Of a stretch of 32,000 bases of DNA, positions 5,445 through 31,791 are shown one piece after another. Where the stretch lies: positions 180,001 through 212,000 of the forward strand of contig NC_014033.1 in assembly GCF_000025925.1 (NCBI RefSeq), written 5' to 3'. The translations under genes and the position numbers were made by a program. Within the stretch, counting starts at the first letter, position 1, and each line of letters opens with the position of its first letter. Origin of the DNA: Xylanibacter ruminicola 23. GTDB taxonomy: Bacteria; Bacteroidota; Bacteroidia; Bacteroidales; Bacteroidaceae. The notes beneath the pieces are model-generated. The model had not been told where the DNA came from and did no database searches. It worked only from the letters and a program-made list of their open reading frames with translations.

Positions 5445-5446
5445 GA

Positions 5447-5506
5447 TTGGTACATTGGTACAATGGTACATTTTAAACATTAAACATTGAACATTAAACA
5501 TTAAAG
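5447..5506. repeat. Composite tandem array: 3 x (T/A)TGGTACA octads followed by 4-5 x TTRAACA heptads (AACATT family)
   Basis: Read directly from the sequence. It fills the whole spacer between the primase stop (5444) and the peptidase ATG (5510). Confidence 0.85.
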
Positions 5507-5509
5507 AGT

Positions 5510-5962
5510 ATGGAACAGATAGTACAGTTAAACAGTAAAGCAAACCTCTCCCAGCACTTCACGCTGGGGGAGTTCACCAGGAGCAAGTATCCTGAGGTGT
5601 ATAACATCCCTAGCCATGAGGCTATCGCTAACCTTAAGCGATTGTGTGAGTGGTTGGAAGTATTGAGGGAGAAAGCCTCACATCCTATTATCATCAACTC
5701 AGGTTATCGATCACCGCAGTTCAATCGTAAGGTTGGTGGAGCTCCCACCAGTAATCACATAACAGGCTGTGCGGTAGATATTCGCACATCTGGGTATGAA
5801 CAGGCCATCTGCTATGCGGCCATCATTATCGATTATGCTAAAGAGAGTAATCAGGACTATGATGAGCTGCTAATAGAGAAGAACCGTTATGGTGCCGTGT
5901 GGTTGCACTTTGCAGTGAGACCGAAAGATAATCGACGTAAGGTTGCATTTATTATTGTTTAA
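5510..5962 (+). CDS. Peptidase M15A family (zinc D-Ala-D-Ala carboxypeptidase-like) cell-wall hydrolase, phage-lysin type
   Basis: SGYRSPQFNRKVGGAPTSNHITGCAVDI contains the H-x6-D metal motif. The distal His lies in WLHFAV. Size (150 aa) is typical of the family. Confidence 0.85.
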   Translation: MEQIVQLNSKANLSQHFTLGEFTRSKYPEVYNIPSHEAIANLKRLCEWLEVLREKASHPIIINSGYRSPQFNRKVGGAPTSNHITGCAVDIRTSGYEQAICYAAIIIDYAKESNQDYDELLIEKNRYGAVWLHFAVRPKDNRRKVAFIIV

Positions 5963-11700: not shown

Positions 11701-12024
11701 ATCGACCGCAACGGTGTGCCTATGCTGAGCGACGTTCCTGTCATCGTGAGTGGTCTTGAGGCCGACCTCAACTCTACCTCTTCACGTTGGCTCACCAGTG
11801 CCAGCTATCTCATTCTGAAGAACATCAACCTTAGCTACCAGCTGCCTAAGGAACTGGTGCGCAAGGCTGGTATCGAGAACGTGATGCTCACACTGACCTG
11901 CGAAAACCTCTTCACACTGACTGCACGCAAGGGTATGAACCCACAGCAGAACTTTGCTGGCACTCAGAGTGCTACCTTCGTTACACCACGCATCTTCTCT
12001 GCAGGGGTGAACATCAAGTTTTAA
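8752..12024 (+). CDS. SusC/RagA-family TonB-dependent outer-membrane transporter
   Basis: Signal peptide, a carboxypeptidase-regulatory-like domain (TVTGTVV..GATIQVVG), the plug signature DEVVVVAYGTQKKTSLTGS, a C-terminal beta-barrel ending in F, and a SusD gene immediately downstream. Confidence 0.95.
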   Translation: MKRLSMMLAGLFLSVGMALAQTTVTGTVVSYEDNEPIIGATIQVVGNAGIGTITDYDGNFTLEVPEGMKTLRITYVGMEPLEVAVSTKTLKIQLRNDVHTLDEVVVVAYGTQKKTSLTGSIQEVKSDAIELRPTTSVASALEGSVTGVQVNSTVGAPGEDPQIRIRGVGTVNGSSSPLYILDGVPYSGSISDLNPQDIESMSVLKDAASAALYGNRASNGVILITTKKGKQGKMNITFDVKQGTYSRGIAEYDRLGAREWMEAQWLNMKNNRMAAGDDAATAGAYASKHLIADRLQLNIFDKADEALFTADGKLVSDARIKGTYGEDLDWYKQAIGHGYRQEYNFNANGATEKSDYLVSLGYLDEQGYLKTSGFDRLSARLSANIQPAEWLKVGVSLNATHQNFNAGYGTGNANTNPFNFCRKISPIYPVHAHNLTTGEYYLDGMGNLMYDGGSYIDPDGQVVHTRNQYPDRHIIWENQLNTDKIIRNTVNSIAYANIILPYNFTLSLKGSLNLSNDSENKYYSAVIGDGKANNGRLRRTDVRQKNYTFQQQLHWRQEFGVHSVDALLGHESYKLTRNYMASGKDSEIVPNLTNLLNFTQFAQLYDYNDNYALESYLGRVRYGYDSRYNIEFSFRRDGSSRFAKNARWGNFWSTGASWVISNEKFMKQYDWVNYLKLRADYGEVGNDSGSGLYGYMALYQQDVHAGKGAYYISQLPNEDLKWETGQSWGVAIEGRLFNKLNFNVEYFDRRNKDLIFNVYNPLSAGATDTTTPQSVTTMNLGTISNHGVEISGDMDVYKSKNWSVNVGASITFEKNKVVKLPEQNRDGIIDGTKKIVEGMDRYQFYTYTWEGVNTKNGLSLYKFNGDEYFFTDGGTTYGNPAGAEITGSQKNAVVVIDGTPYSYLTTYGKREFHGSAMPTAYGSFNFSVSYKAFSLYTLFTYQLGGKVMDSNYQLLMNSQSTPTALHKDVLKGWTAEQATATDAIDRNGVPMLSDVPVIVSGLEADLNSTSSRWLTSASYLILKNINLSYQLPKELVRKAGIENVMLTLTCENLFTLTARKGMNPQQNFAGTQSATFVTPRIFSAGVNIKF

Positions 12025-12027
12025 GAG

Positions 12028-12056
12028 TGAATAGTTAATAGTTAATAGTGAATAGT
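12028..12056. repeat. 4 x (G/T)(G/T)AATAG heptad array filling the SusC-SusD spacer
   Basis: GTGAATAG TTAATAG TTAATAG TGAATAG lies between the stop at 12024 and the ATG at 12060. A related GAATAGT AATTACT AATATAT occurs at 8711-8731 upstream of SusC. Confidence 0.85.
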
Positions 12057-12059
12057 TTT

Positions 12060-13604: not shown

Positions 13605-14748
13605 TGGCGCAAGCTACGGTATAAGCGGTGGTCCAAGCGGCTTGGAAATTAAAGCCACCTGTGACACCATCGATATCGAGAACCTCTCCAGCGAAATAAA
13701 CGCTGGGGAGGTTTTTGCTTTCTAAGGTGTTGGGATTCACACTCGCCAAGTCGACACCGCCACAGGTCACAAACTCGTCCTTAAAGGCCGAACGACCTGC
13801 TATCTGGTACTGATCGTTGCACAGGGCATTGGTCAGTCGGTTCAGCTCCTTCTGGTTCAGATTCTGCCAACGGTTCTGGGCACGTTCGCCAAGGGTCTTG
13901 GCTACGAGGTAATCCCACAAACGGCTGGGCAATCCAAAGGGACGGATGGTGGCAATCTGTTTTTGCGGATGCTGGGCGATGATGGTGCGCAACTCCTGCT
14001 GGATGTCGGGCTCCTTGAGCGAGGTCCAGTTCACAGCCAAAGGCATCTGGTAGTTATGCTCGTGCAAATCGCGAGCGGCATGACTACTGAGCTTCAGAAT
14101 GGCTGGTCCGCTCATGCCCCAGTGGGTGATGAGCAACGGACCGTTACTGCGGAACTTGGTGCCTGGGATCGAGGCGGTGGCATCTTCTACCACCGTGCCC
14201 ATCAAGGCACGCAAGGCCTCGTCGGCAATGCTGAAGGTGAACAATGACGGAACGGGTTCGATGGTGGGTACGCCAGCCATCGATGCAGTACCACCACCTG
14301 TGGTGATGACCTTGAAATCAAAGTCGTTCAGCTCGTCGAGACTCTCGATTTTATGCTGGATGCATATCTCGATGTTCTTTCGGCGGGCTTCGGCCAAGAA
14401 GAGATTAATGATGGTATGCGAATCCTGTGAGGCGGGAAATACGCAGTTGTCGTCCTGGGTGGTAAGCTTTACCCCATGGTTCTCGAACCACGCATAGGCA
14501 TCGCGGTAATCGAAGGTTTTAAACAGTCGTTTCAGCAAACGGTGCCCACGTGGATATACCTGTTGCAAATCGCTTACAGCCTCGAACGAGTTGGTGCAGT
14601 TACATCTGCCACCACCAGATACCTCGACCTTGGCCAGCACCTTCTTGGATTTCTCAAAAATGGTGATGTCCATATCGGGACACATTTCCTTGAGGTTAAC
14701 GGCCAGGAAGAATCCAGCCGCACCTCCACCTACTATCGCAGTCTTCAT
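13561..14748 (-). CDS. HI0933/YhiN(BaiN)-family NAD(P)/FAD-dependent oxidoreductase
   Basis: N-terminal Rossmann motif VGGGAAG and the family-typical SGGGRCNCTN. 395 aa. Its 3' end overlaps the SusD 3' end by 44 nt. Confidence 0.88.
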   Translation of the reverse strand: MKTAIVGGGAAGFFLAVNLKEMCPDMDITIFEKSKKVLAKVEVSGGGRCNCTNSFEAVSDLQQVYPRGHRLLKRLFKTFDYRDAYAWFENHGVKLTTQDDNCVFPASQDSHTIINLFLAEARRKNIEICIQHKIESLDELNDFDFKVITTGGGTASMAGVPTIEPVPSLFTFSIADEALRALMGTVVEDATASIPGTKFRSNGPLLITHWGMSGPAILKLSSHAARDLHEHNYQMPLAVNWTSLKEPDIQQELRTIIAQHPQKQIATIRPFGLPSRLWDYLVAKTLGERAQNRWQNLNQKELNRLTNALCNDQYQIAGRSAFKDEFVTCGGVDLASVNPNTLESKNLPSVYFAGEVLDIDGVTGGFNFQAAWTTAYTVACAISQQARCSQSPSEG

Positions 14749-14790
14749 TTTTACATTCTTACATTTTTACATTTTCTCATTTCTCAATGA
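14749..14790. repeat. Octad array TTACATTY x3 then TCTCATTT / CTCAATGA (minus strand: GAAATGAG AAAATGTA AAAATGTA AGAATGTA)
   Basis: Occupies the spacer between the acetate--CoA ligase stop (14777-14779) and the flavoprotein start (14748), and runs into the ligase 3' end. Confidence 0.8.
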
Positions 14791-16842: not shown

Positions 16843-16873
16843 CAAAGATAGTGCAAATCGAACAAAATACAAA
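16843..16873 (-). promoter_or_regulatory. Promoter TTTG-N19-TATCTTTG (minus strand) for the acetate--CoA ligase gene, ending 5 nt before its ATG
   Basis: The minus strand reads TTTG(16873-16870)-N19-TATCTTTG(16850-16843)-CACCT-ATG(16837-16835). Confidence 0.55.
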
Positions 16874-16892
16874 ATAAAAAACGTTATTTTTC

Positions 16893-19900: not shown

Positions 19901-22252
19901 CAGAGCACCGATTCGGGGATCGCTTATGCCGCTAATGGTGCCGAAGAGGCTGCTAATGAAGAGCAGACTGCAGCATCAGATGTGCAGGTACGCGAAAATC
20001 TCAATGAAACCGCTTTCTTCTATCCCCAGCTTACTACCGATGCCAATGGTCGCGTGGCTATCAAGTTTACTTTGCCAGAGAGTTTGACTACCTGGCAGAT
20101 GTTAGGCTTTGCGCACACGCGCGATTTACATTATGGTAACATTGCGGGTGAGGCTGTGGCTAAGAAGGATGTGATGATACAGCCTAACGTGCCTCGCTTT
20201 ATCCGCGAGGGCGATAAGGCCACCATCTCTGCCCGTATCTTTAGCGAGAAACAGGCACAAGGCAAGGTAACCCTGCAGCTCATCAATGCCGAGACTAACG
20301 CCATCGTCTACGAAAAGTCGCAGCAAGTATCGCTCGCCGCAGGTTCTACAACCCCCGTCGAGTTTGAATGGTCAATGGTCCATGGTCCGCTCGGCTTTGC
20401 CGCTTGGCACGTCCAAGAATGTTCAATGTTGATCGTCAAAATGACGATCAGCGGTAAAGGCTTCAGCGATGGTGAGCAGCATTATCTGCCTGTATTGCCA
20501 GCTACCGAGCGAGTTACTGTTTCGCTGCCTATCACCCAGCACCAGCCTGGTACTGCTACCATCGATTTGAACAAGTTGGTTCCTGCTGATGCTAAGAACA
20601 CCAAACTTACACTCGAATATACCAACAATCCCGTTTGGCTCATGGTGCAGGCTCTGCCAGCAGTAGGCTCGCCCAGCGACGATAACGCCATCTCACTGGC
20701 CGCCTCGTTCTATGCCAACGGACTGGGACGATATATCATCAATCAGAATCCACAGATCAAGAACGTGTTCGAGCTCTGGAAGCAGGAGCCTAACGAGGCC
20801 TCGCTCACCTCTCAACTGGAAAAGAATGAGGATTTGAAGAATCTTGTTCTGAACGAAACTCCTTGGGTGCTGGATGCCGACAACGAGACTGAACAGAAGC
20901 ATCGCTTGGTTGACTTCTTCGACGAGAATCTGATGAACAACCGTCTTTCTACCACCGTCGAGAAGTTGCAGAAACTGCAGAACGCTGAGGGTGCGTGGAC
21001 CTGGTTCCCGGGCATGCCAAGCTCGTTCTATACCACTGTAGCTGTAAGCGAAATGCTGGTACGCCTGAATTCCCTCACCCAGAAGCAGAGTTCTACCAGC
21101 ACCATGCTGAATAAGGCCTTTGGCTATATGGGCAACGAGATAAAAGATCTGGTAAAGGAACTGAAGAAAGCCGAGAAGAAGGGCGAGGTTTACTTCCCAA
21201 GTTATAAGGCGCTACAGTGGCTGTATCTGGTAACCCTTGATGATCGCCAGTTGCCAGCCGATGTTCAGCAGGCCAACAGCTATCTCATCGAGCTACTTAA
21301 AAAAGATATCAAGCGTCAGAGCATTTACGATAAGGCCCTTGCAGCAGTCATCTTTGCCAAGGTTGATGCCAAGCGTGCTCAGGAATATGCCCAGTCGCTC
21401 AAGGAGTACACCGTTTACCGCGAGGATATGGGACGCTATTACGATACCCCACGTGCAGGTTACTCTTGGTTTGATTATAAGATTCCAACCCAGAGTATCG
21501 CCATCGAGGCCCTGCAGCAGTTAACTCCTGATGATGTGCAGACTATCGATGAGATGCAGCGCTGGTTGCTGCAGCAAAAGCGCACCCAGGCTTGGGATAC
21601 ACCTATCAACAGCGTGAATGCCGTTTATGCCTTCCTGAAAGGTCAGGAGAGCCGTTTGGCACAAAGCTCAAACATGCCTGCTGTCCGTATCGATGCCCGC
21701 ACCGTTGCGCTGCCCAAGGCAACAGCAGCTATCGGCTATGTAAAGACCGAATTGCCAAAGGGTAAGCAACTCACCATCCGCAAAATCACCGATGGAACCT
21801 CATGGGGTGCCGTTTATGCCCAGTATTTCCAGCCCGCCAAGCAGGTTGAGAATAGCGGCAGTGGTCTCACCATCAAGCGCGAGTTCTTGAAAAATAATTG
21901 TCAATTGTCAACTGTCAATTATCAATTCACGGTCGGAGACCGTATCCGCGTCCGCCTTACCATCACTGCCGATCGCGATTACGATTTTGTGCAGGTGGTT
22001 GATAAGCGTGCGGCTTGCATGGAGCCCGTTAAGCCGTTGAGTGGTTATCATGCGGGTGCTTATATCACACCTCGCGATAATGCCACATGCTACTTCTTCG
22101 GCATGCTGTCGAAGGGTACCCATGTGATCGAAACCGAGTATTATATCGATCGAGCCGGAACCTACGAAACAGGTACCGCCACCGTAGAGTGTGCCTATGC
22201 ACCCGAGTTCCGCGCCGTTACTCACTCGGAAACATTAAAGATTAAACATTAA
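16952..22252 (+). CDS. Bacterial alpha-2-macroglobulin family protein (MG-domain rich, 1766 aa), thioester-less type
   Basis: Signal peptide MKKFLIITIALIMPMFLFGQ at the internal ATG 16952; the track ORF from 16823 overlaps the divergent promoter region. Size and conserved blocks (GFSDGEQHYLPVLP, DYDFVQVVDKRAACMEP) fit the family. No C-x-E-Q thioester motif occurs anywhere in the translation. Confidence 0.88.
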   Translation: MKKFLIITIALIMPMFLFGQSYSALWKQVSEAEEKDLPKTQYEVLQKIVKKAEKEQQYGQLLKAELYAAQTMVDIAPDSLKPEVDRIVARYQKATDKVQRLVYQTVLWQIDNENYSIDLGIKKPQLTPELCQLLAATKERSYQPFVVMGADASVFGNDMLSVIGAELGEYQQLRDYYQKTGNQKAVSIIDAHLAIDRYNALPYNTPAVDRIAFIDDAIAKWGRWPEINYLRNAKKELTNPQFHLSYPLSVVRPMQAQQVMLNDLRHLSQLTMTVYPVRCEGDIEHSPSSEKGWTKIRPLLGAPVVTETKHFAARPDYEIFEDSMTLKGLPIGMYLVEFKSNPTTEVIRTLYHVTNVFTIAEAQPDGKTRYEVVNATTGQPIADAHLRIKERPYSVFAYTDTDKAGAVLYGNGRYEFYGADRTVNQTAIFTDRSIYRPGQTVHASALVYQVEKGIKQTVRAHQTLKFVLRDANHKVVAEKQTESDAYGVGAVDFTLPAKGLTGLFTIQVENASRPIRVEEYKRPTFHVDFAEYKDAYKAGDVLDIKGTALSYAGVPVQDAKVAYKVLRRTALWWWSYNRYYDEGALGYSNHGTEICSGEATTDADGNFVIKMPLEMPETKYTMFYNFVLQADVTDMAGETHQGQFTLPLGNRPTALSIDLDEKVLVEDNPQATFHLRNAAGKDIDAEVRYRIDGGEWQMARTNQQIALAKLASGKHRVEAAYEDQTIDRTFVVFSLDDEKPATDTDDWFYQSATQFPNDGTPVTIQVGSSDQNVHIFYSIFSGHKLIEQGSVDKSNELINRKFTYQDEYENGLLLTFAWVKNGKCYTHTAQIQRPMPNKKLTLEWATFRDRLTPGQKEEWTLTIKDCEGNPVDANLMATLYDQSLDQLAKHQWNFRPYQWIAMPSVNWQYVSPRSFGRFASHDWKGFSFDGIGFSLFDHNVYPQAFYRHSFRGVKTLSRGHVGDDMILEVAEAAPMAADMKMMKQSTDSGIAYAANGAEEAANEEQTAASDVQVRENLNETAFFYPQLTTDANGRVAIKFTLPESLTTWQMLGFAHTRDLHYGNIAGEAVAKKDVMIQPNVPRFIREGDKATISARIFSEKQAQGKVTLQLINAETNAIVYEKSQQVSLAAGSTTPVEFEWSMVHGPLGFAAWHVQECSMLIVKMTISGKGFSDGEQHYLPVLPATERVTVSLPITQHQPGTATIDLNKLVPADAKNTKLTLEYTNNPVWLMVQALPAVGSPSDDNAISLAASFYANGLGRYIINQNPQIKNVFELWKQEPNEASLTSQLEKNEDLKNLVLNETPWVLDADNETEQKHRLVDFFDENLMNNRLSTTVEKLQKLQNAEGAWTWFPGMPSSFYTTVAVSEMLVRLNSLTQKQSSTSTMLNKAFGYMGNEIKDLVKELKKAEKKGEVYFPSYKALQWLYLVTLDDRQLPADVQQANSYLIELLKKDIKRQSIYDKALAAVIFAKVDAKRAQEYAQSLKEYTVYREDMGRYYDTPRAGYSWFDYKIPTQSIAIEALQQLTPDDVQTIDEMQRWLLQQKRTQAWDTPINSVNAVYAFLKGQESRLAQSSNMPAVRIDARTVALPKATAAIGYVKTELPKGKQLTIRKITDGTSWGAVYAQYFQPAKQVENSGSGLTIKREFLKNNCQLSTVNYQFTVGDRIRVRLTITADRDYDFVQVVDKRAACMEPVKPLSGYHAGAYITPRDNATCYFFGMLSKGTHVIETEYYIDRAGTYETGTATVECAYAPEFRAVTHSETLKIKH

Positions 22253-22265
22253 ATATTATAATATT
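22230..22265. repeat. Heptad array AAACATT AAAGATT AAACATT AAATATT ATAATATT
   Basis: Overlaps the last codons and the stop (22250-22252) of the A2M gene and fills the spacer up to the DUF1573 ATG at 22267. Confidence 0.85.
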
Positions 22266-23340: not shown

Positions 23341-23368
23341 GAATGTTCAATCTTCAATGTTCAATGTC
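23341..23368. repeat. Heptad array GAATGTTC AATCTTC AATGTTC AATGTC
   Basis: Fills the spacer between the DUF1573 stop (23337) and the meaB ATG (23371). Confidence 0.85.
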
Positions 23369-23370
23369 AT

Positions 23371-24471
23371 ATGGAACATCCCGAAAATAGCTCAGAATAT
23401 GCAGGCTTGCAGGTAAACAGTGGGGTAGAGCAACCCTCTATCGTTAACCCCTACCTCAAGCGTGGTCGTTTCCGTCGTCACGAACTCTCTGTAGGTGAGA
23501 TGGTAGAAGGCATCCTCAAGGGCGATGTCACCATCCTCTCGCAGGCTGTTACGCTGATTGAGAGTGTGAATCCCGACCATCAGGCCCGTGCTCAGGAGGT
23601 GATCAACAAGTGCTTGCCTTATAGTGGCAATTCCATCCGCATTGGTATCAGTGGTGTACCAGGTGCAGGTAAAAGTACCTCGATCGACGAGTTCGGTATG
23701 CACGTACTCAAGGAGAAGGGTGGAAAGCTGGCTGTGCTGGCCATCGACCCTAGTAGTGAGCGCACCAAGGGCTCGATTCTGGGCGATAAAACACGTATGG
23801 AAAAGTTGGCACAACATCCGTCGTCGTTCATACGTCCTAGCCCATCAGCTGGCTCGTTGGGAGGTGTGGCCCGCAAGACTCGCGAGACGATTATTCTGTG
23901 CGAGGCCGCTGGTTTCGATAAGATATTTGTTGAGACCGTGGGTGTTGGTCAGAGCGAAACAGCCTGCCACTCGATGGTAGATTTCTTCCTGCTCATTCAG
24001 GTGGCTGGTACCGGCGACGAGTTGCAGGGTATTAAGCGCGGCATTATGGAGATAAGCGATGGCATCGTGATTAATAAGTGCGATGGCGATAATGTGGATC
24101 GTTGCCAGATGGCGGCTACCAATTTCCGTAATGCCCTCCACTTCTTCCCCATGCCCGATAGCGGTTGGAGTCCTAAGGTGCTATGCTACAGTGGATTCTA
24201 CGGTACAGGCGTAAAAGAGATATTCGACATGATTTACGAGTATATCGATTTTGTAAAGGCCAACGGCTATTTTGCCTATCGTCGCAATGAGCAGGCTAAA
24301 TACTGGATGTACGAGAGCATCAACGAGCATCTGCGACTCAACTTCTACAACAATCCCGCCATCCAGGCTCAGTTGGGCACCGCCGAAACTGCTGTTCTCG
24401 CAGGTCAGAAAACATCGTTCGTAGCTGCTCAGGATCTTCTCGACGAATATTTCTCTTTGCTCAAAAAATAA
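23371..24471 (+). CDS. meaB: Methylmalonyl-CoA mutase-associated GTPase MeaB (ArgK family)
   Basis: P-loop GISGVPGAGKST, LAIDPSS, GDKTRM and the NKCD specificity motif. 366 aa. Confidence 0.92.
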   Translation: MEHPENSSEYAGLQVNSGVEQPSIVNPYLKRGRFRRHELSVGEMVEGILKGDVTILSQAVTLIESVNPDHQARAQEVINKCLPYSGNSIRIGISGVPGAGKSTSIDEFGMHVLKEKGGKLAVLAIDPSSERTKGSILGDKTRMEKLAQHPSSFIRPSPSAGSLGGVARKTRETIILCEAAGFDKIFVETVGVGQSETACHSMVDFFLLIQVAGTGDELQGIKRGIMEISDGIVINKCDGDNVDRCQMAATNFRNALHFFPMPDSGWSPKVLCYSGFYGTGVKEIFDMIYEYIDFVKANGYFAYRRNEQAKYWMYESINEHLRLNFYNNPAIQAQLGTAETAVLAGQKTSFVAAQDLLDEYFSLLKK

Positions 24472-24511
24472 TGTTTAATCTTTAATGTTTAATGTTTAAT
24501 ATTTAATCATT
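24470..24511. repeat. Six-unit heptad array AATGTTT AATCTTT AATGTTT AATGTTT AATATTT AATCATT
   Basis: Begins inside the meaB stop codon (24469-24471) and ends 1 nt before the ispH ATG (24513). Confidence 0.9.
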
Positions 24512-24512
24512 C

Positions 24513-25388
24513 ATGATTATCGAAATAGATAACGGCAGTGGTTTCTGCTTCGGAGTTACCACCGCTATCAAAAAAGCCGAAGAAGAGCTCGCTCAGGGCG
24601 AAACACTCTATTGTTTAGGTGATATTGTACACAACGGTATGGAGTGCGAACGCCTGCGCGAGATGGGACTCATTACCATTAATCACGACCAGATGCGCGA
24701 ACTGCACAACGCCAAAGTGTTGCTGCGTGCCCATGGCGAGCCTCCCGAAACCTACGAACTGGCCCGCAAAAACAATATCGAGATTATCGATGCTACCTGC
24801 CCTGTGGTGCTGAAACTGCAGAAGCGTATCAAGGAGCAGTACGAAACCTCGCCCAATCTTCCCGAAGGTGAGGAGGCACAGATTGTGATTTTTGGTAAGA
24901 AAGGTCATGCCGAAGTGCTTGGTCTGGTGGGTCAGACTCATAGTAGTGCGATTGTGATTGAGAGTAGCGACGAGGTGACTAAGCTTGATTTTACCCGCGA
25001 TATCTACCTGTATTCGCAGACCACGAAATCGCTCGACGAGTTCCGTCGCATCATCGATTATATCCAGACGCATATCTCGCCCAACGCCACGTTTAAGAGT
25101 TTCGATACCATCTGTCGTTCGGTAGCCAACCGCATGCCCAATATCTCGCAGTTTGCCACCAAGCACGATCTGGTACTCTTTGTGTGTGGCCGAAAGAGTT
25201 CAAACGGCAAGGTGCTTTACAACGAGTGCCTGCGTGTAAACCCCAATACCCACCTGATTGAGGACCCACAGGAGATTGAGCCCGAGTGGTTGAAGGGTAT
25301 CGAGAGTGTAGGTATTTGTGGTGCCACCAGCACGCCCCGTTGGTTGATGGAGCAGTGCCGCGACGCCATTCAGAATATGCAGCAATGA
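24513..25388 (+). CDS. ispH: 4-hydroxy-3-methylbut-2-enyl diphosphate reductase
   Basis: GFCFGV (first Fe-S Cys), ATCPVV (second Cys), a third Cys in DTIC, and the SSNG motif. 291 aa. Confidence 0.93.
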   Translation: MIIEIDNGSGFCFGVTTAIKKAEEELAQGETLYCLGDIVHNGMECERLREMGLITINHDQMRELHNAKVLLRAHGEPPETYELARKNNIEIIDATCPVVLKLQKRIKEQYETSPNLPEGEEAQIVIFGKKGHAEVLGLVGQTHSSAIVIESSDEVTKLDFTRDIYLYSQTTKSLDEFRRIIDYIQTHISPNATFKSFDTICRSVANRMPNISQFATKHDLVLFVCGRKSSNGKVLYNECLRVNPNTHLIEDPQEIEPEWLKGIESVGICGATSTPRWLMEQCRDAIQNMQQ

Positions 25389-26053
25389 TACAGGTAAGTG
25401 TGTCTTCCGAAATATCCAGCGTGTGCCCCAATTTTGTGGGGGCATGCGTTGAGGCTCAGGTGGTAAATACGCCTTATAGCGACCGTTTGTGGCATGCTAT
25501 CCACGAGGTTGAGGAACGTTTGCGCCAAGAGCTTACTACCGAAAGCGTAAAGTCGTTGCCATCTATCGCCGCCACACGTGCGGTATATAAGTTATGTGGC
25601 AAGGATCCCTCACGCTATCGTCCTGCCTCTGAGCAGCTTATCCGTCGAATGCTACAGGGAAAGGAGCTTTACCAGATTGATACGTTGGTAGATCTGGTAA
25701 ACCTGGCTTCGATTGCCTATGGTTACAGCATTGGTGGATTTGATGCCGATAAGTTTGTGGGGCCCGAACTGGTGCTAGGTGTTGGTAAAGAGGGTGAGCC
25801 CTACGAGGGTATCGGTCGCGGTCCGTTAAACATTGCCGGACTGCCCGTTTATCGAGATGCCCAAGGTGGTGTAGGTACGCCTACTAGCGACCATGAGCGC
25901 ACCAAAATGACGCTCGGGACTACCCATCTCGTTGTGCTCATCAACGGCTACGATGGTAACGAAGAACGTGTTCGTGCCAATGCCGAATACATTCAGAAAC
26001 TCCTTATCGATTACGCCCAGAGCGATGGCGGAACTATTACGCTATATAGATAA
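25385..26053 (+). CDS. B3/B4 domain-containing protein (Phe-tRNA synthetase beta B3/B4-like)
   Basis: ATGA start/stop overlap with ispH (ATG 25385-25387, TGA 25386-25388). 222 aa with family-like blocks (RPASEQLIRR, DTLVDLVNL, GGFDADK). The track ORF from 25286 lies inside ispH. Confidence 0.75.
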   Translation: MIQVSVSSEISSVCPNFVGACVEAQVVNTPYSDRLWHAIHEVEERLRQELTTESVKSLPSIAATRAVYKLCGKDPSRYRPASEQLIRRMLQGKELYQIDTLVDLVNLASIAYGYSIGGFDADKFVGPELVLGVGKEGEPYEGIGRGPLNIAGLPVYRDAQGGVGTPTSDHERTKMTLGTTHLVVLINGYDGNEERVRANAEYIQKLLIDYAQSDGGTITLYR

Positions 26054-26247
26054 TTTAGGTTCAGGTGGTTTTATTTCTTGCCGAAATTACCAAATTTTTT
26101 CATAAAAATATGGCATTAGCATATTTCTTGGCATTTTTGCTCCCACACGTGGGAAATATTTTTTCCACACGAGAGCGCTATTTTTTATGCTTGTAAAGGT
26201 TATACTGTATACGATTTGTGTAACGAATAATGTAAAATATTATGAAC

Positions 26248-26255
26248 TATCTTTG
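26248..26255 (+). promoter_or_regulatory. -7 box TATCTTTG positioned to start transcription at about 26261-26263, the edge of inverted-repeat arm A
   Basis: Exact TAnnTTTG match. There is no good -33 TTTG at 19-21 nt (the nearest is at 26215-26218, 29 nt away). No CDS follows for about 500 nt. Confidence 0.4.
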
Positions 26256-26421
26256 TATTTGTGCGGATACAGAAATACAGAATACAGTTTTGTTGTGAGC
26301 ATTGTCAATCCAAAAATTCAGTAATTCAGAATTCAGTTTTCTCATGAGCACAAAGATGACTCAGATATCAGATATCAGTTTATTTGGCTAAGCATTTGTA
26401 ACTTTAAATATACTCTATTAG

Positions 26422-26473
26422 AATATTATATATTATTATATATATTATAATATATATAATAATATATAATATT
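26422..26473. repeat. Perfect 52-bp palindrome composed only of A and T
   Basis: Position i pairs with position 26895-i for every base from 26422 to 26473, with the symmetry centre between 26447 and 26448. It breaks at 26421 (G) versus 26474 (T). Confidence 0.95.
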
Positions 26474-26593
26474 TATAAGATTGATAATTAGAGAGTGAAG
26501 CGATAGTTGTATTAGCTCACAAGAAAACTGATATCTGATATCTGAGTCACACACAGATTATCCCTCTCCAAATAACCTGTATTCTGTATTCTG

Positions 26594-26623
26594 TATCCAC
26601 TGATGTTTCTTTATCAGTGGATA
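26594..26623. other. Hairpin with an 11-bp stem and 8-nt loop, overlapping the end of arm A'
   Basis: TATCCACTGAT (26594-26604) pairs with ATCAGTGGATA (26613-26623) across the loop GTTTCTTT. Confidence 0.8.
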
Positions 26624-26720
26624 TATAGCTTCCTAAAAAACTGAATTACTGAATTCTGAATTTTCTCGCTCAGTTTAGATAAGTTGGTGGTATGGTGTTG
26701 CTAATAAAAAAACGAAAAAA

Positions 26721-26752
26721 TTTGTTTTTTCGCTTACTTATTCGTACCTTTG
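26721..26752 (+). promoter_or_regulatory. Promoter TTTG-N20-TACCTTTG for trmB
   Basis: TTTG at 26721-26724 and TACCTTTG at 26745-26752, 16 nt before the ATG at 26769. Confidence 0.6.
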
Positions 26753-26768
26753 CAGCACAATTTTGATT

Positions 26769-27539
26769 ATGGGAAAAGGAAAGTTAGCTAAATTTGCGGA
26801 CATGGAAACGTACGAGAACGTATTCCAGTATCCGTTTTCGGTGATTGAGAATGTGCCATTCGAGATGAAGGGGCACTGGCACGAGCAGTACTTCCACAAT
26901 AATAACCCGATAGTGCTGGAACTTGGTTGCGGTAAGGGAGAATACACAGTGGAACTGGCCAAACTGTATCCCGACATGAACTTTATTGGCGTGGATATCA
27001 AAGGTGCACGTATGTGGACTGGTGCTACACAGGCCCTGAACGAGGGACTGAAGAATGTGGCTTTTCTGCGTACGAATATTGAAATAATTGAACGTTTTTT
27101 TGCAGAGGACGAGGTGCAGGAAATCTGGCTCACATTCAGCGATCCGCAGATGAAGAATCCTCGTAAGCGATTGACATCCACCTATTTTATGAACCGCTAT
27201 CGTAAATTTCTGGTGGATGGCGGCGTGATACACCTGAAGACTGATTCGAACTTCCTCTTTACTTATAGTACCTATATGGTAGAGAAGAATGCGCTGCCCG
27301 TAATTTTCCGTACAGAGGATTTGTATCACGATGAGCGTATCGACGAGGGTACGAAGAAGATTCTGGCTATTCAGACTTATTACGAGGGTATGTGGATTGC
27401 CCGCGGACTGAATATTAAATATATGAAGTGGAATCTGCCTCGCAACGGCGAGCTGGTTGAACCCGAGGTGGAGATTGAACTGGACGACTATCGCTCGTAT
27501 CACAGATCAAAAAGAAGTTCATTAGATAAGGCGAAATAA
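26769..27539 (+). CDS. trmB: tRNA (guanine(46)-N7)-methyltransferase
   Basis: SAM-binding [15 protein letters not shown] and the FIGVDIKG and SDPQ motifs. ATG at 26769 (TTG at 26763 in the track). Confidence 0.9.
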
Positions 27540-28666
27540 TGGAAAATGTAATATACCCCAAGATGGTGATGGATGCCTTGGCTACGGTAACGTATGCAGG
27601 CACCAAGAAGAATGTGGTGGAGAGTGGTATGGTGGCTGATACACCTGCTGTGGCTGCTCCACAGAAGGATGGTGAGAACTGGAAAGTAAAGGTGGTGCTG
27701 GAGTTTCCACGCGATACCGATCCTTTCCTGAAATCAACTGTAAAAGCTGCCGAGGCGGCTATCAAATACCACTGCGGCAAGGAGGTGGAGGTAGAGATTG
27801 AAACAGAATTCAAGTCGAAACCACGTCCAGAGGTAGGCGAGATGCTGCCTGGCGTCAAGAATATTATTGCCGTTAGCTCGGGTAAGGGTGGTGTAGGTAA
27901 AAGCACCGTATCGGCTAACCTGGCTATCGCTTTGGCCCGTTTGGGTTACAAGGTGGGATTGCTTGATACCGATATCTTCGGTCCGTCAATGCCTAAGATG
28001 TTTAATGTTGAGGATGAACAGCCTTACGCTGTAAAGAAAGACGGTCGCGATTTGATTTGTCCCATCGAGAAGTACGGTGTTAAACTGCTGTCGATTGGTT
28101 TCTTTGTATCGCCAAACACTGCTACTCTGTGGCGTGGCGGTATGGCTACAAGTGCGCTGAAGCAGCTGATTGCTGATGCCGATTGGGGCGAACTCGACTA
28201 TTTTATCCTGGATACACCTCCAGGCACCAGCGATATCCATCTTACATTGCTGCAAACACTGCCTATTACAGGCGCGGTGATTGTGTCAACCCCACAGCAG
28301 GTGGCTTTGGCTGATGCACGTAAGGGTATCGATATGTACCGCAACGAGAAGGTGAACGTGCCCATTCTCGGTTTGATTGAGAATATGGCCTGGTTTACAC
28401 CCGCAGAGCTGCCCGAGAACAAGTATTATATATTTGGTAAGGAGGGTTGCAAGCAGTTGGCCGAGGAGATGCAGGTGCCTTTGCTGGCACAGATACCACT
28501 AGTACAGAGCATCTGCGACAATGGTGACAAGGGTACGCCCGCTGCTCTCACCAGCGAAACGGCTACCGGTCTGGCATTCATCAATCTGGCACAATCGGTT
28601 GTTACCGTTGTGAACAGGAGAAACAAAGAAAAGCCTGCCACGAAAATTGTAGGTATGCATAAATAA
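27539..28666 (+). CDS. apbC: Mrp/NBP35 (ApbC) family Fe-S cluster carrier ATPase
   Basis: N-terminal DUF59-like domain, deviant Walker A SGKGGVGKST and an MinD-like fold. Its start shares 1 nt with the trmB stop (TAATG). Confidence 0.92.
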   Translation: MENVIYPKMVMDALATVTYAGTKKNVVESGMVADTPAVAAPQKDGENWKVKVVLEFPRDTDPFLKSTVKAAEAAIKYHCGKEVEVEIETEFKSKPRPEVGEMLPGVKNIIAVSSGKGGVGKSTVSANLAIALARLGYKVGLLDTDIFGPSMPKMFNVEDEQPYAVKKDGRDLICPIEKYGVKLLSIGFFVSPNTATLWRGGMATSALKQLIADADWGELDYFILDTPPGTSDIHLTLLQTLPITGAVIVSTPQQVALADARKGIDMYRNEKVNVPILGLIENMAWFTPAELPENKYYIFGKEGCKQLAEEMQVPLLAQIPLVQSICDNGDKGTPAALTSETATGLAFINLAQSVVTVVNRRNKEKPATKIVGMHK

Positions 28667-28670
28667 AAAT

Positions 28671-28698
28671 AAAGCCCACTCGATGTTGAGTGGGCTTT
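28671..28698. terminator. Bidirectional intrinsic terminator between the convergent apbC and DUF805 genes
   Basis: AAAGCCCACTC (28671-28681) pairs with GAGTGGGCTTT (28688-28698) across a 6-nt loop, with A/T runs on both sides. Confidence 0.8.
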
Positions 28699-28703
28699 AT
28701 TAT

Positions 28704-29237
28704 TTAAGCTTCTGTCTCGCTGATATATTTGGGCGAATCGCCGTACTGGTTGGCGGTTGGCTTGCTATCGAACAGACACATGATGATTACAATGAGTGCC
28801 GCAATGCCATGGATGGTGGACAGAAAACCAACGGAGGCAATCTCGCCTAAGTTGTTTTCTACAATCTTCTCTATGGCATGCTGGCTGGAAGAAATGTAGC
28901 TTGATTCTTCTATCAGCATGTTCATGCTTTTGGATGTGGCCACATGGAGATTGGCTACACAGCCTAAAGCATAGCTGACATAAACCCATAGTGCGCTCTT
29001 GCCTGAATCGTGCAGTCGACGAGCAGTTACTGCCAGACCGAAGAACATGGTGATAATCTCGATAATCACGCTAACCAGAATGTTGGAGGTGAGCAGCGTA
29101 ATCAGCCATCCCACCACGATAATTACCAGCATCCACCACCAGAATTCTGAGCGACGGCTGCGGCCTTTGAAATCCAGAATACGACTAGAGGCCAGTTTGA
29201 TTGCCTCTGCAAATCCGAGCGTAGGTAACTCTCTCAT
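28704..29237 (-). CDS. DUF805 domain-containing inner-membrane protein
   Basis: Hallmark FKGRSRRSEFWWW ... ARRLHDSGKS with 3-4 predicted TM helices. The start is placed at the internal ATG 29237 (MRELPTLGF...), because the longer track ORF to 29435 runs into ilvE. Confidence 0.8.
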   Translation of the reverse strand: MRELPTLGFAEAIKLASSRILDFKGRSRRSEFWWWMLVIIVVGWLITLLTSNILVSVIIEIITMFFGLAVTARRLHDSGKSALWVYVSYALGCVANLHVATSKSMNMLIEESSYISSSQHAIEKIVENNLGEIASVGFLSTIHGIAALIVIIMCLFDSKPTANQYGDSPKYISETEA

Positions 29238-29254
29238 ACTTTTCAAAGATCCGA

Positions 29255-30271
29255 TTAGTCGATTACTACCGTAGTCCAACCGTGCTTGTCCTCGAGTTCG
29301 CCGTACTGAATACCACGGAGCGTATCGAAGAGTTTCTTTGACTGTGGACCTGGCTTGTCGCCGAATGAGTAGCGCTTGCCGGTATCGAGGTCGTCGATAT
29401 AAGAAATAGGGCTGATAACAGCGGCTGTTCCGCAAGCGCCAGCCTCCTCAAAGGTCTCGAGCTCCTCCTCGGGGATAGGGCGGCGCTCAACCTTCATGCC
29501 CAGATCCTCAGCAACCTGCATCAAGCTCTTGTTGGTGATAGAGGGCAGGATAGAGGTCGACTCTGGTGTGATATAGGTGTTGTTCTTGATACCAAAGAAG
29601 TTGGCTGCACCGCACTCGTCGATGTACTTCTTCTCCTTTGCGTCGAGATAGAACTCGCAAGCATAGCCCTTTTCGTGAGCCAGGTTGTTGGCAAACAGGC
29701 TGGCAGCGTAGTTACCACCTACCTTATACTTACCTGTGCCGAGAGGGGCTGAACGGTCGTAATCGCGAACAATCACATAAGGATTGCTTGAGAAACCACC
29801 CTTGAAGTATGGGCCTACTGGTGTAACAAAGATGAGGAAACAGTACTCCTTAGAGGGGTGAACACCTACCTGAGCGCTGGTACCAATAAGCAGCGGACGA
29901 ATATAGAGTGTTGCGCCACTCTCATAAGTAGGAATCCACTCCTGATTCAGGCGAACCACCTTCTTAACCATCTCGGTAAACAACTCGGTTGAAACCTCTG
30001 GCATCAAAATGCCGCGACAGGTGCTCTGCAGGCGCTTGGCATTCTCGTCAACGCGGAACACACGAACCTTGCCATCGGGGCAACGATAAGCCTTAAGACC
30101 CTCGAAAGCCTCCTGACCGTAGTGCAGACAGGTTGCAGCCATGTGCAGATTCAAATACTCGTCGGAGCAAACCTCGATTTCGCCCCACTTTCCATCGCGA
30201 TAATAGCAACGTACGTTGTAGTCGGTCTTCATGTAGCCGAATGACAGACTACCCCAATCCAAATTCTTCAT
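29255..30271 (-). CDS. ilvE: Branched-chain amino acid aminotransferase (fold type IV PLP enzyme)
   Basis: 338 aa, similar across its whole length to IlvE-type transaminases (YGQEAFEGLKAYR, GTGKYKVGGNYAAS, GACGTAAV). Confidence 0.92.
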   Translation of the reverse strand: MKNLDWGSLSFGYMKTDYNVRCYYRDGKWGEIEVCSDEYLNLHMAATCLHYGQEAFEGLKAYRCPDGKVRVFRVDENAKRLQSTCRGILMPEVSTELFTEMVKKVVRLNQEWIPTYESGATLYIRPLLIGTSAQVGVHPSKEYCFLIFVTPVGPYFKGGFSSNPYVIVRDYDRSAPLGTGKYKVGGNYAASLFANNLAHEKGYACEFYLDAKEKKYIDECGAANFFGIKNNTYITPESTSILPSITNKSLMQVAEDLGMKVERRPIPEEELETFEEAGACGTAAVISPISYIDDLDTGKRYSFGDKPGPQSKKLFDTLRGIQYGELEDKHGWTTVVID

Positions 30272-30309
30272 ATTACTTTTTTCTATGTTTGAAATTTCAA
30301 ATTTGCATG

Positions 30310-30317
30310 CAAAAGTA
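30310..30317 (-). promoter_or_regulatory. -7 box TACTTTTG (minus strand) upstream of ilvE
   Basis: The reverse complement of CAAAAGTA matches TAnnTTTG, about 39 nt before the ilvE ATG at 30271. Confidence 0.45.
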
Positions 30318-30360
30318 TATAATTAATATCAAATTAGCAAAACTTTTAGCCTAAAATCTT

Positions 30361-30549
30361 TTATTCTGTAAGTATTTTCTTGATTTCGGCGTCGGTTTTG
30401 GTAAGTTTGTCCTTGCAGAGCTTGATTAACTGCTGGGCACGTTTAAGCTGCTCGGCCATCTGGTCGATGTCGAGTTCGTCGTTCTCCATCTTGTGTACGA
30501 TGGACTGTAATTCGGCTATAGCAGCCTCGTATTTCAGTTCTTTTTCCAT
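30361..30549 (-). CDS. xseB: Exodeoxyribonuclease VII small subunit
   Basis: 62-aa helical protein with the XseB pattern (YEAAIAELQSIV..ME..ELDIDQ). Lies 6 nt downstream of xseA. Confidence 0.9.
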   Translation of the reverse strand: MEKELKYEAAIAELQSIVHKMENDELDIDQMAEQLKRAQQLIKLCKDKLTKTDAEIKKILTE

Positions 30550-30555
30550 TGTATT

Positions 30556-31791
30556 TTATACGGATTTAATTACTGAGTGAATGGTACCCTTGGCTAGGCG
30601 GGTCTCGATTTCGGCGCCGGGGGGCAGCTGCGATGCGTCTTTTACGGCCCGGCCGTTATGCATAGTGATGCTGTAGCCGCGAGCCAGCAACAGGGTTGGG
30701 TCGAGGGCTTTGAGTTTCTCGTCCATCAGTTGCAGACGATGTCTCTCTGATGTGAATCGGCGCTCTATCAACATTGGCAGGCGGGTATAGAGGGCATCAA
30801 TCTTAGCCTCCTGTCGGGTTTTTACAATCGAGAACAATCGGGGGATAGCCTCGGATATAATTGACAATTGAGAATTGGCAATTGAAAATTTTTGCTGAAC
30901 GTAGTGCGTAATCATGCTCTGGGCTCCTTCGATGGTTTCGAGTACGCCCTTCAGGTGGTCGATGAGCAAGGCGGCTGCAGCTGTGGGTGTTTTTACGCGG
31001 GTGTGCGATATCATATCGAGTATGCTCTCGTCGCGCTCATGGCCGATACCTGTTATGATAGGTATTGGGAAGTTGGCCACATTTTCGGCCAAAGCCAAGG
31101 TGTCGAAACCGCTCATATCGCTGGTAGCACCACCACCACGGATAATCACTACGCAATCAAATGGCATATCGTAAATCTGCTCCAGAGCACTGATGATGCT
31201 CTGTTCAACGCCCTCGCCCTGCATGATAGCAGGAAAGAGCTGTGTCTCGAATTTAAAGCCGTAAGGGTTATCAGCCAGTTGGTTGCAGAAATCGCCGTAG
31301 CCAGCGGCTGTTTGCGATGAGATAACGGCAATACGCTGGCAGAAAACGGGTAACTGTAGTTCCTTTTGCAGGTCGAACACGCCCTCGGCCTTAAGCTTCT
31401 GGATGATTTCCTGACGCTTGCGGGCCATATCGCCTAAGGTGTAGGTGGGGTCGATGTCGGTCACGATCCACGAGAAACCGTAAGCCTCGTGAAACTGCGG
31501 GTAAACCTGTAGCAGCACTTTCATACCGGCATGCAGTTGTTGACCGGTAGTGCGCTCGAAGTAAGGACGGATGGTGAGCCACTTGTTGGCCCAGCATTTG
31601 GCTGAGGCTTTGGCGATAGGTGTGGCGGTTTGTTCATCCTTCTGAATAAGCTCCATATAACAATGACCACGTGATTCGCGGCACTCGCTGAGTTCGGCTT
31701 CTACCCAGTATTCCATGGGCAAAGCATCCTCGATAGCCTCGCGTACCAAGCGGTTAAGCTCGAATAATGTGATATGGCGCTCTGTATTCAA
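30556..31791 (-). CDS. xseA: Exodeoxyribonuclease VII large subunit (apparent TTG start)
   Basis: OB-fold N-terminus (ITLFELNRLV...YWVEAELSE), catalytic core (VISSQTAAGYGDF, IIRGGGATSDM) and a C-terminal coiled coil. The only in-frame ATG would remove 25 conserved N-terminal residues. Confidence 0.88.
   Translation of the reverse strand: MNTERHITLFELNRLVREAIEDALPMEYWVEAELSECRESRGHCYMELIQKDEQTATPIAKASAKCWANKWLTIRPYFERTTGQQLHAGMKVLLQVYPQFHEAYGFSWIVTDIDPTYTLGDMARKRQEIIQKLKAEGVFDLQKELQLPVFCQRIAVISSQTAAGYGDFCNQLADNPYGFKFETQLFPAIMQGEGVEQSIISALEQIYDMPFDCVVIIRGGGATSDMSGFDTLALAENVANFPIPIITGIGHERDESILDMISHTRVKTPTAAAALLIDHLKGVLETIEGAQSMITHYVQQKFSIANSQLSIISEAIPRLFSIVKTRQEAKIDALYTRLPMLIERRFTSERHRLQLMDEKLKALDPTLLLARGYSITMHNGRAVKDASQLPPGAEIETRLAKGTIHSVIKSV

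Follow-up and report, generated by a model that had tools for sequence, protein, structure and literature searches.

What occupies the 715-nt gap between a B3/4-domain gene and trmB in Xylanibacter ruminicola 23? We analyzed 32,000 nt of this genome (contig NC_014033.1, positions 180,001 to 212,000, assembly GCF_000025925.1; "the window," whose numbering is used throughout), in which the gap, with 28 to 33% G+C, runs from the B3/4-domain stop codon at 26053 to the trmB ATG at 26769. A preliminary description based on the window alone had noted three long inverted-repeat pairs in an orphan locus and had favored an RNA of about 400 nt. Comparison with related sequences leads us to a different reading, to which we assign a probability of roughly 45%: the locus belongs to a family of noncoding DNA palindromes that is lineage restricted and low in copy number, which acts or persists as DNA and whose arms are twinned by template switching.

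The gap is noncoding, as had been described, and contains only short open reading frames (ORFs) without conservation. Those of 45, 34, and 42 amino acids were rejected as genes because they lie inside repeats and lack conservation in other allele types. All three inverted-repeat pairs are present where they had been placed, far above chance expectation, and their order, A B C..C′ A′ B′, was read correctly. C/C′ (26357 to 26381 and 26525 to 26549) is exact over its claimed 25 nt and 93% complementary over 30 nt. A/A′ (26265 to 26287 and 26577 to 26598) likewise has its 22 pairs, with one bulged A because the A units measure 8 and 7 nt and those of A′ 7 and 7 nt. The B/B′ arms (26313 to 26340 and 26637 to 26664), described earlier as complementary over about 27 bp, are only 79% complementary without gaps and match in two exact 15-nt blocks whose registers are shifted, since 8-nt and 7-nt units occur in swapped order. 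Every arm in the window consists of three tandem 7- to 8-nt units with CAG ends, followed by an oligo(T) run, and the pattern CAG-N4-5-CAG-N4-5-CAG in an A+T-rich context is exclusive to these six sites within 32 kb. Three features had been overlooked: a 52-nt central palindrome, a local 11-bp hairpin, and conserved tails. Behind each arm, on the side facing the center, lies a loosely conserved tail, TTTT-N4-6-GAGCW; the shared design of arm and tail identifies the six arms as copies of one 38- to 49-nt unit. The core side of every arm is bounded by an oligo(T) run on the left or an oligo(A) run on the right. The single strand from 26258 to 26670 folds with a z score of −12 relative to dinucleotide shuffles, as DNA or RNA alike. 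The features are listed in Table 1.

Table 1. Coordinates of the element upstream of trmB, its flanks, and heptad arrays elsewhere in the window
Feature	Position	Strand	Description
Left flank (left module)	26088..26255	.	Context, outside the palindromic element; ends in TATCTTTG box (26248-26255)
Unit A	26265..26301	+	Arm GGATACAG-AAATACAG-AATACAG (26265-26287), tail TTTTGTTGTGAGCA
Unit B	26312..26351	+	A5 run, arm TTCAGTAA-TTCAGAA-TTCAG (26317-26336), T4 run, tail CTCATGAGCAC
Unit C	26357..26394	+	Arm TGACTCAG-ATATCAG-ATATCAG (26357-26378), tail TTTATTTGGCTAAGCA
Left spacer	26395..26417	.	Innermost unit to core; not complementary to right spacer; unrelated in other allele types
Invariant core	26418..26478	.	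TTAG + perfect 52-nt A+T-only palindrome (26422-26473) + TATAA
Right spacer	26479..26512	.	Between core and unit C′
Unit C′	26513..26549	- (inverted)	Tail TAGCTCACAAG, arm AAAACTGATATCTGATATCTGAGTCA
Unit A′	26562..26598	- (inverted)	Tail CCCTCTCCAAATAAC, arm CTGTATT-CTGTATT-CTGTATCC (26577-26598)
Local 11-bp hairpin	26594..26623	.	TATCCACTGAT / ATCAGTGGATA; −9.3 kcal/mol, z = −7.3
Unit B′	26624..26664	- (inverted)	Tail TATAGCTTCCT, A6 run, arm CTGAATTA-CTGAATT-CTGAA, T4 run
trmB promoter	26721..26771	+	-33 TTTG (26721-26724), -7 TACCTTTG (26745-26752), ATG 26769
Heptad array TTAAACA x4.7	5473-5505		Before start codon
Heptad array TTAATAG x5.3	12021-12057		Before start codon
Spacer heptad/8-mer arrays	5446-5505, 12021-12057, 14742-14782, 16862-16881, 22230-22265, 23342-23367, 24469-24519		3 to 6 units, before co-directional starts

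The central palindrome has 26-nt arms that are 100% complementary and no loop. As a DNA hairpin the core reaches a calculated −15.6 kcal/mol (z = −5.9), and it is predicted to be capable of forming a hairpin or cruciform. Over 60 to 63 nt the core is identical across copies at all loci, with just two single-base variants, one of them beside the symmetry center; the exact sequence of about 60 nt was found in about 35 contigs. This 100% identity holds whereas the neighboring homologous DNA is 89 to 93% identical or unrelated. Across 405 kb of related DNA the core is the sole long perfect palindrome besides ordinary terminators. On the right, 46 to 49 nt separate the core from its nearest arm in all four known arrangements despite unrelated spacer sequences. 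Core invariance this strict implies an additional constraint, for example a protein that binds the core or copies that often convert one another.

Nor is the locus an orphan: the core recurs at two to three loci per genome and in four species-level genomes. When one genome per species was scanned, the core was found only in four records with seven loci, three from Xylanibacter ruminicola and one from an uncultured Prevotellaceae metagenome-assembled genome. Its copy number is one to three per genome, with three copies in strain D31d and two in Ga6B6. When metagenomes were scanned for the core together with the adjoining TTAG, 17 contigs had the exact core, some of the window type, six with a third trmB-linked arrangement, and the remainder with a second family located elsewhere; the core is also exact in trmB- or lytB-anchored contigs. 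Its genomic contexts are thus upstream of trmB and, in the second family, beside an HU-like gene. Throughout, the anatomy is a central A+T palindrome of about 60 nt and, some 30 to 50 nt off on each side, one to four units of 38 to 49 nt, each unit being a heptanucleotide microsatellite of two to four copies. The HU-linked family has a single G+C-rich pair, H = (CCGCACG)x3-CAAC-TTTT, adjoins the HU-like gene and variable, restriction-modification-like DNA, and sits between divergent genes.

Searches beyond these contexts delimited the family. Look-ups with the B3/4 and Mrp proteins gave almost no further alleles, and the element was not found upstream of trmB in relatives whose TrmB is 86 to 92% identical, where trmB directly follows other genes. 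A BLAST search with the whole gap gave no match among plasmids and a single 64-nt A+T-rich chance match among phages. A scan of viral contigs with the core found just A+T-rich, giant-virus-like contigs from which the arms are absent, and when arms C, H, and A were used instead, 0, 2, and 36 matches resulted, respectively, which either were no more than chance would give or lay in unrelated G+C-rich DNA; a phage origin of the arms as "spacers" is therefore rejected. The family is confined to one species complex, the rumen bacterium Xylanibacter ruminicola, and its distribution is narrow.

Allele comparison was based on contigs encoding exactly the same TrmB, plus LytB-identical contigs. Even among contigs with identical TrmB the gap is highly polymorphic. 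One contig (L005, GCA_019973335.1) has a 715-nt gap identical to that of the window, and three more (L007, L009, and L010) share its arrangement; this window type comprises seven distinct alleles with 96% mean identity. In three others (L002, L003, and L004) the gap measures 170 to 193 nt and has neither arms nor core, and a further four (L107, L110, L113, and L115) are also empty. At least seven contigs with identical TrmB or LytB thus lack the locus, an outcome that the preliminary description had itself named as speaking against its proposal. Two contigs (L006 and L111) retain the left flank, B, B′, and an identical core, and the other arms are replaced, giving the arrangement D(TTGACAG) B E(TTACAGA) F(TTTCAGT) | F′ E′ D′ B′; the third trmB-linked arrangement, in six contigs, reads A C G(GTGACAG) | C′ G′ A′. 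Identity to the window is 93% for unit B and 97.5% for unit B′ in the L006 type, 91% for the C′-A′ segment in the L034 type, and 89 to 90% for the left flank in the other trmB-linked types. In the L034 type the core, oriented by its asymmetric 4-nt flanks, faces the opposite way relative to trmB and the spacers are unrelated; no flipped variant occurs within any allele type among about 30 consensus assemblies.

Several alleles are deletions. In L008, 331 nt are missing from just outside A into A′, and the junction fuses two direct repeats, TGTATT, from the foot of the A/A′ stem, which is the trace that slippage past a hairpin in DNA classically leaves. L001 has lost everything left of C′, with the junction at the inner edge of C′, and L020 has lost one unit, A′ together with the local hairpin, between similar unit tails. 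The left arm of this local hairpin is the outer end of A′, so the hairpin competes with A/A′ pairing; both its stem and its loop vary among strains.

The arms themselves are free in sequence and fixed in symmetry. Four arrangements contain eight arm types (A, ATACAGA; B, TTCAGWA; C, TCAGATA; D, TTGACAG; E, TTACAGA; F, TTTCAGT; G, GTGACAG; and H, CCGCACG), whose identity varies by locus and strain. In intact copies each left arm has, without exception, an exact inverted twin of 17 to 32 nt on the right. Neither spacers nor tails show such complementarity, and pairing ends sharply at the arm ends. Each of the three multiarm arrangements contains exactly one crossed pair, with different partners (A and B, D and B, or C and G). 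In alleles of the window type, all five stem substitutions disrupt pairing without a compensating change, and heptads are lost from a single arm, A′ in L009 and C′ in L010. Heptad number is likewise altered on one side only in other types, in H of L033, H′ of L036, and F of L111. The twins thus look as if they were perfect at birth and decayed later, unlike helices that are kept by compensatory evolution.

Heptads are not peculiar to the element. Tandem Repeats Finder detected all six arms as tandem arrays, and in the whole window it found 11 nonredundant arrays of period 7 and three of period 14, compared with about 0.75 and 0.1 per local shuffle; outside the locus there are nine arrays of either period versus about 0.85 expected from local shuffles. 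Most of the latter fill spacers ahead of start codons (Table 1), TAATGTT x5.6 being another example, and their copy number varies among strains. The MeaB-LytB spacer, for instance, differs by whole heptads, with about four in L002 and L003, six in the window, and eight in L004. The same heptad habit is seen in the 405 kb of related loci, with CAG-type units confined to the element. Heptanucleotide simple-sequence repeats (SSRs), including assemblages before start codons in some Bacteroidetes, are known and have been ascribed to polymerase slippage (PMC4679880, summarizing Mrazek et al. 2007). The arms qualify as long SSRs by their tandem 7- to 8-nt units above chance and by copy-number polymorphism between close strains. 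Since heptads are genome-wide and already described, it is the twin layout around a palindrome, not the heptad design, that is special to the locus.

Copies of the element also coincide with junctions. In three HU-linked contigs (L025, L028, and L036) the flanking DNA switches 0 to 3 nt from the outer end of H′, and short-read contigs often end at the palindrome. Relatives with 86 to 92% identical TrmB (L076 to L103) carry xseA-xseB-aminotransferase-(DUF975)-trmB-mrp on one strand; in the window (26769 to 31791) the trmB-mrp block is inverted relative to the xseA block. From the one-strand order of the relatives it follows that trmB-mrp was inverted in the window lineage, with the element at one breakpoint. 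The B3/4-trmB interval is, moreover, a hot spot of gene content among LytB- or TrmB-identical strains (L006, L010, L109, L111, L112, L114, and L116; L001; L007). It may hold nothing (170 nt), an oppositely oriented His_Phos_2-like gene of 419 amino acids, either alone or with a locus that includes SusD, an extracytoplasmic function (ECF) sigma/FecR/SusC set, or a CotH/ricin-lectin gene. The variable DNA beside the element is a His_Phos_2 gene, a polysaccharide utilization locus, or an ECF sigma/FecR/SusC set.

We propose the following mechanism. The arms would be ordinary heptanucleotide SSRs that expand, contract, and change units through replication slippage. A changed or new arm would then be copied in inverted orientation across the core by template switching between the palindrome halves (quasipalindrome conversion), probably primed at the A/T runs that bound the arms on the core side. 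Through this inverted copying, twins would start out perfect and decay later. Once single stranded, the core and twins would fold back and give rise to slippage deletions and to breakage at stem bases, and because of such breakage the element would come to lie at junctions of variable or rearranged DNA. The anatomy, the family, the twinning and one-sided decay of arms, the deletion alleles, and the junction positions are observed; that template switching makes the twins, that the DNA folds in vivo, and that the element causes the rearrangements is inferred.

Four observations weigh against this model. A neutral or selfish mutational process does not explain why 60 nt of pure A+T are fixed across loci and species-level clusters, a pattern that suggests sequence-specific recognition or very recent spread. 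Template switching should copy spacers too, yet complementarity stops at the arm ends. The model does not predict that the order of twins is never fully mirrored, with one crossed pair in each multiarm arrangement. Finally, a right spacer of constant length, 46 to 49 nt, without sequence conservation hints at a structural or protein constraint. Because these points are left unexplained, explanations by a protein-recognized site, a mobile element, or an inversion switch stay alive.

The RNA proposed in the preliminary description would be a structured noncoding RNA of about 400 nt in which A/A′, B/B′, and C/C′ form a pseudoknot or alternative folds; in a variant, they would be RNase III stems in a read-through transcript. 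The predicted fold is indeed highly stable (−139.9 kcal/mol, z = −12), and twins of arbitrary sequence are what selection for pairing, rather than for protein recognition, would produce. As had been stated, no named RNA family is matched: Rfam gave no match at gathering thresholds for the whole window and only chance-level matches, far below gathering scores (E ≥ 1.3), for 25900 to 26900, and a scan for tRNA and tmRNA found none. The signals that were to delimit the transcript fared less well. The −7 box TATCTTTG, a TAnnTTTG motif, lies just upstream of arm A in the window allele, but its role as a promoter of the locus is not supported: the nearest TTTG is 29 nt upstream, whereas consensus spacing is 19 to 21 nt, about 29 such boxes occur in the window and are attributable to composition alone, and the box is absent from the L006 and L034 trmB-linked types and from the HU-linked type. 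Where a long-range terminator had been suggested, B′ is followed by four T residues, and the sole site in the gap resembling an intrinsic terminator, with a G+C-rich stem directly before a T run (26141 to 26163), lies outside the arms. Nor is there a conserved fold, as the pairing topology, including the crossing pair, varies between allele types, and the check for compensatory changes proposed with the RNA returned none within the window type, with five disruptive substitutions and one-armed indels. The HU-linked element lies between divergent genes, perfect helices of 22 to 30 bp and a 26-bp hairpin of A-U pairs only are atypical for functional RNAs, and strains with identical neighboring genes do without the locus. 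An RNA with its own promoter and terminator was therefore not borne out, and we regard an RNA explanation in either form as highly improbable. The contention that simple nested insertions of MITEs (miniature inverted-repeat transposable elements) cannot account for the arm order did stand, and of the readings offered at the outset, the brief alternative of cruciform or recombination sites comes closest to the comparative data.

Among DNA-based explanations, a protein-recognized site would have a dimeric or multimeric protein (for replication, partition, recombination, or nucleoid function) bind the core, with the heptads as iteron-like accessory sites at a fixed distance. A core that is invariant in sequence and not just in symmetry, a steady 46- to 49-nt distance over unrelated spacers, arms of three tandem 7- to 8-nt units in inverted symmetry, and the HU-like DNA-binding protein gene adjoining the second family all fit such a site. 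Eight arbitrary arm types, one of them G+C rich and without CAG, nevertheless leave no place for a single reader, and eight specific proteins are implausible. Further, the element is dispensable in strains with identical neighboring genes, no candidate gene is linked to both families, and the absence of a GC-skew switch at the locus means that it is not oriC. We consider a protein site unlikely on balance. Somewhat harder to sustain, and in our judgment quite unlikely, is a nonautonomous foldback or MITE-type mobile element with the arms as terminal inverted repeats and the transposase encoded elsewhere. Several copies per genome with an identical core, presence/absence polymorphism, HU-linked flanks that change exactly at the outer end of the right arm, small size, A+T richness, and intergenic location are all typical of such elements, and Bacteroidota have MITEs with tandem repeats (BrickBuilt; PMC4596501). 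However, the would-be terminal repeats vary and the middle is conserved, the reverse of a MITE; no direct repeat that could be a target-site duplication flanks A/A′, B/B′, C/C′, or H/H′; just two or three genomic contexts are used, with one flank constant (the trmB or HU-like gene region); and phage, plasmid, and viral collections hold no match. The long ORFs of the 32-kb window encode no transposase or recombinase domain, although a recombinase could act from elsewhere, and this bears equally on a site-specific or homologous inversion switch, in which heterospecific pairs would invert the core segment and the crossed A B..A′ B′ order would correspond to a FLEx layout, a one-way flip followed by deletion. 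Such a switch would make sense of distinct repeat pairs of 22 to 30 bp, of exactly one crossed pair in three of three multiarm arrangements, and of the L034-type core facing trmB in the opposite direction. But no allele type includes orientation variants in the roughly 30 assemblies, none of the products predicted from a FLEx-type reaction (A-inverted core-B′) was found, a consensus promoter is missing from the inner segment, and spacers on the two sides of the "inverted" core show no relation from one type to another, so that the difference is not a simple flip; we hold this explanation to be improbable. We are similarly skeptical of a functional DNA device of a new type, in which the palindrome would be a recognition or extrusion site for some DNA-processing activity and the freely evolving, heterospecific twin arms would be "addresses" paired or synapsed across it, the always crossed pair being a natural analog of the FLEx layout; the outcome would be programmed inversion or deletion specific to each strain, or control of local topology, at the border of variable DNA.

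Known systems resemble the element in part. REP/BIME/REPIN sequences are imperfect palindromes built of units of about 35 nt with conserved sequence, present in tens to hundreds of copies and moved by RAYT transposases. Like them, the element is a noncoding, intergenic, hairpin-capable mosaic of short units in both orientations that is associated with genome plasticity; its units, in contrast, are not self-complementary and vary in sequence, it has one to three copies per genome, and the conserved part is the central A+T palindrome. Drosophila foldback transposons, which are kilobase sized, have long inverted arms of short tandem subrepeats about a central segment, but the arms of any one of them belong to one subrepeat family, and there is no sequence or host relation to the element. 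An A+T palindrome flanked by inverted iterons is found in the herpes simplex virus origins oriS and oriL and the simian virus 40 core origin, and heptad operators are bound by ribbon-helix-helix proteins such as omega of pSM19035. The element shares with these the central A+T-rich symmetry, the short tandem repeats in inverted orientation on both sides, and the 7- to 8-bp period; there, one conserved repeat is read by one protein, whereas in the element the repeat sequence is free and left-right complementarity alone is kept. Invertons, which occur in Bacteroidales (e.g., bioRxiv 10.1101/2023.03.11.532203), and shufflons have distinct inverted-repeat pairs on either side of a short segment, and FLEx (DIO), an engineered layout of heterospecific sites, has exactly the same crossed order, A B..A′ B′, as the element, which differs in having no nearby recombinase, no observed orientation variants, and no inner promoter. 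Quasipalindrome template-switch mutagenesis perfects imperfect inverted repeats, and palindromes stimulate deletion between short direct repeats at hairpin bases (Lovett 2004, as cited in PMC4679880). Both outcomes, perfected repeats and hairpin-base deletions, are present among the alleles; the process has, however, been described for short hairpins and is not known for twins 130 to 300 nt apart astride a conserved core.

Two further classes invite comparison. The BrickBuilt MITEs of Porphyromonas gingivalis are likewise species restricted, small, intergenic, A+T rich, made of tandem repeats with inverted ends, and present or absent by strain (PMC4596501). Their tandem repeats are 23 nt long and share a single orientation, and a genome contains 19 copies (PMC4596501), whereas the element has variable ends with eight arm types, a conserved center, no target-site duplication, and one to three copies in two contexts. 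Heptad SSRs show the same tandem 7-nt units in two to six copies, intergenic and often before start codons, with strain-variable copy number; assemblies break inside them, and in Bacteroidetes mixed-heptamer "assemblages" can occupy one spacer (PMC4679880). Intergenic TAACTGA repeats occur in Beggiatoaceae, Cyanobacteria, and some Bacteroidetes (PMC4679880), and the F arm contains the complement, TCAGTTA. The arrays in the cited work are direct repeats with a single inverted case (PMC4679880); those of the element, in contrast, are reverse-complement twins placed symmetrically about an invariant palindrome, and the CAG-type units are found here in the element only. The components are thus known in kind, as heptad SSRs, extragenic palindromes or MITEs, and palindrome-driven mutagenesis. 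For the combination of an invariant A+T palindrome, free-sequence twins, modular 38- to 49-nt units, and one crossed pair, we found no description in the literature, and searching the literature on P. ruminicola for inverted repeats or palindromes turned up no specific account.

Further observations concern individual parts of the family and the window. In strain D31d (NZ_FNRF01000002.1), two HU-linked copies, near 375 kb (L031) and near 671 kb (L037), lie in inverted orientation 296 kb apart and share about 600 nt of flanks; such a pair could be a substrate for a large chromosomal inversion. In HU-linked copies such as L037 and L018, the H arm recurs within the right spacer (+30 to +80 relative to the core) as a direct copy without expansion, CCACACCGCAA, which pairs locally with H′ as a small hairpin, the heptad expansion being present only in the distant partner across the core; A′ in the window, with its own local hairpin, is a parallel. 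One viral contig (L039, IMG/VR 3300006803_002416; positions about 3700 to 3840), a chance match of the H-arm pattern in unrelated G+C-rich DNA, contains (GTTGCGGC)n arrays and 20-nt direct repeats, TATGCC[TG]CT[TA]ACGTCAACGC, in an apparent origin region. A chromosomal origin at the trmB locus was rejected, as the cumulative GC skew climbs steadily through it without a switch and the element is dispensable; the only two DnaA-box-like sequences, with 7/9 matches, are both in the local hairpin. In the left flank, the terminator-like hairpin with a T run at 26141 to 26163 is accompanied by twin CCACACGTGG-type motifs; these two motifs (26141 to 26172), TCCCACACGTGGGA ... TTCCACACGAGAG, are spaced 22 nt apart, are kept in all trmB-linked allele types, and are both full CCACACGTGG copies in the L034 type. 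They could be a terminator or an operator. The trmB promoter is canonical and independent of the element, and it is conserved in all alleles, element-free ones included.

Elsewhere in the window, four arrays (5473 to 5505 and 22230 to 22258 versus 23342 to 23367 and 24469 to 24519) belong to one heptad family, with the variant units AAAGATT and AAATATT included, in both orientations: (AAACATT)n lies ahead of a DUF1573 gene, whereas meaB and lytB, 1.1 to 2.2 kb away on the same strand, are preceded by the complementary (AATGTTT)n. If carried on one polycistronic RNA, these spacer heptads would be complementary. Two arrays, at 21896 to 21927 (AATTGTC x4.6) and 30859 to 30890 (AATTGAC x4.6), are near reverse complements built around palindromic CAATTG and lie inside long ORFs, one in the alpha-2-macroglobulin-like bMG10 region and the other in xseA, where the array is conserved in L001 to L004. 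At 1358 to 1400, iteron-like AAAAATACGGAG x2 is followed by ATACGGAA x2, upstream of a promoter-like TACCTTTG box near 1429 to 1436. These repeats lie within a cluster of small ORFs of unknown function together with an 825-amino-acid BT4734-like (primase-like) gene (2967 to 5444) and a peptidase M15 gene (5510 to 5962), a cluster that looks like an integrated element. The likeness of arm A to the ATACGGAA repeats at 1385 to 1400 (16/18) is not significant given the number of arrays, rotations, and strands and is probably due to chance.

If this description holds, the element is a natural case in which left-right complementarity is kept while sequence stays free. Such complementarity is usually taken as proof of RNA structure; here it occurs in DNA, very probably without an RNA product, which is a warning for covariation-based searches for noncoding RNAs. 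The locus would also be a tractable system for the interplay of palindromes and microsatellites (template switching, slippage, and fragility) in an anaerobe, with alleles that display arm births, decay, and deletions. On the practical side, short-read assemblies break at the element, which also marks the site of a rearrangement breakpoint beside trmB. The invariance of the core across loci and species-level lineages suggests an as yet undescribed binding factor or conversion process in rumen Prevotellaceae.

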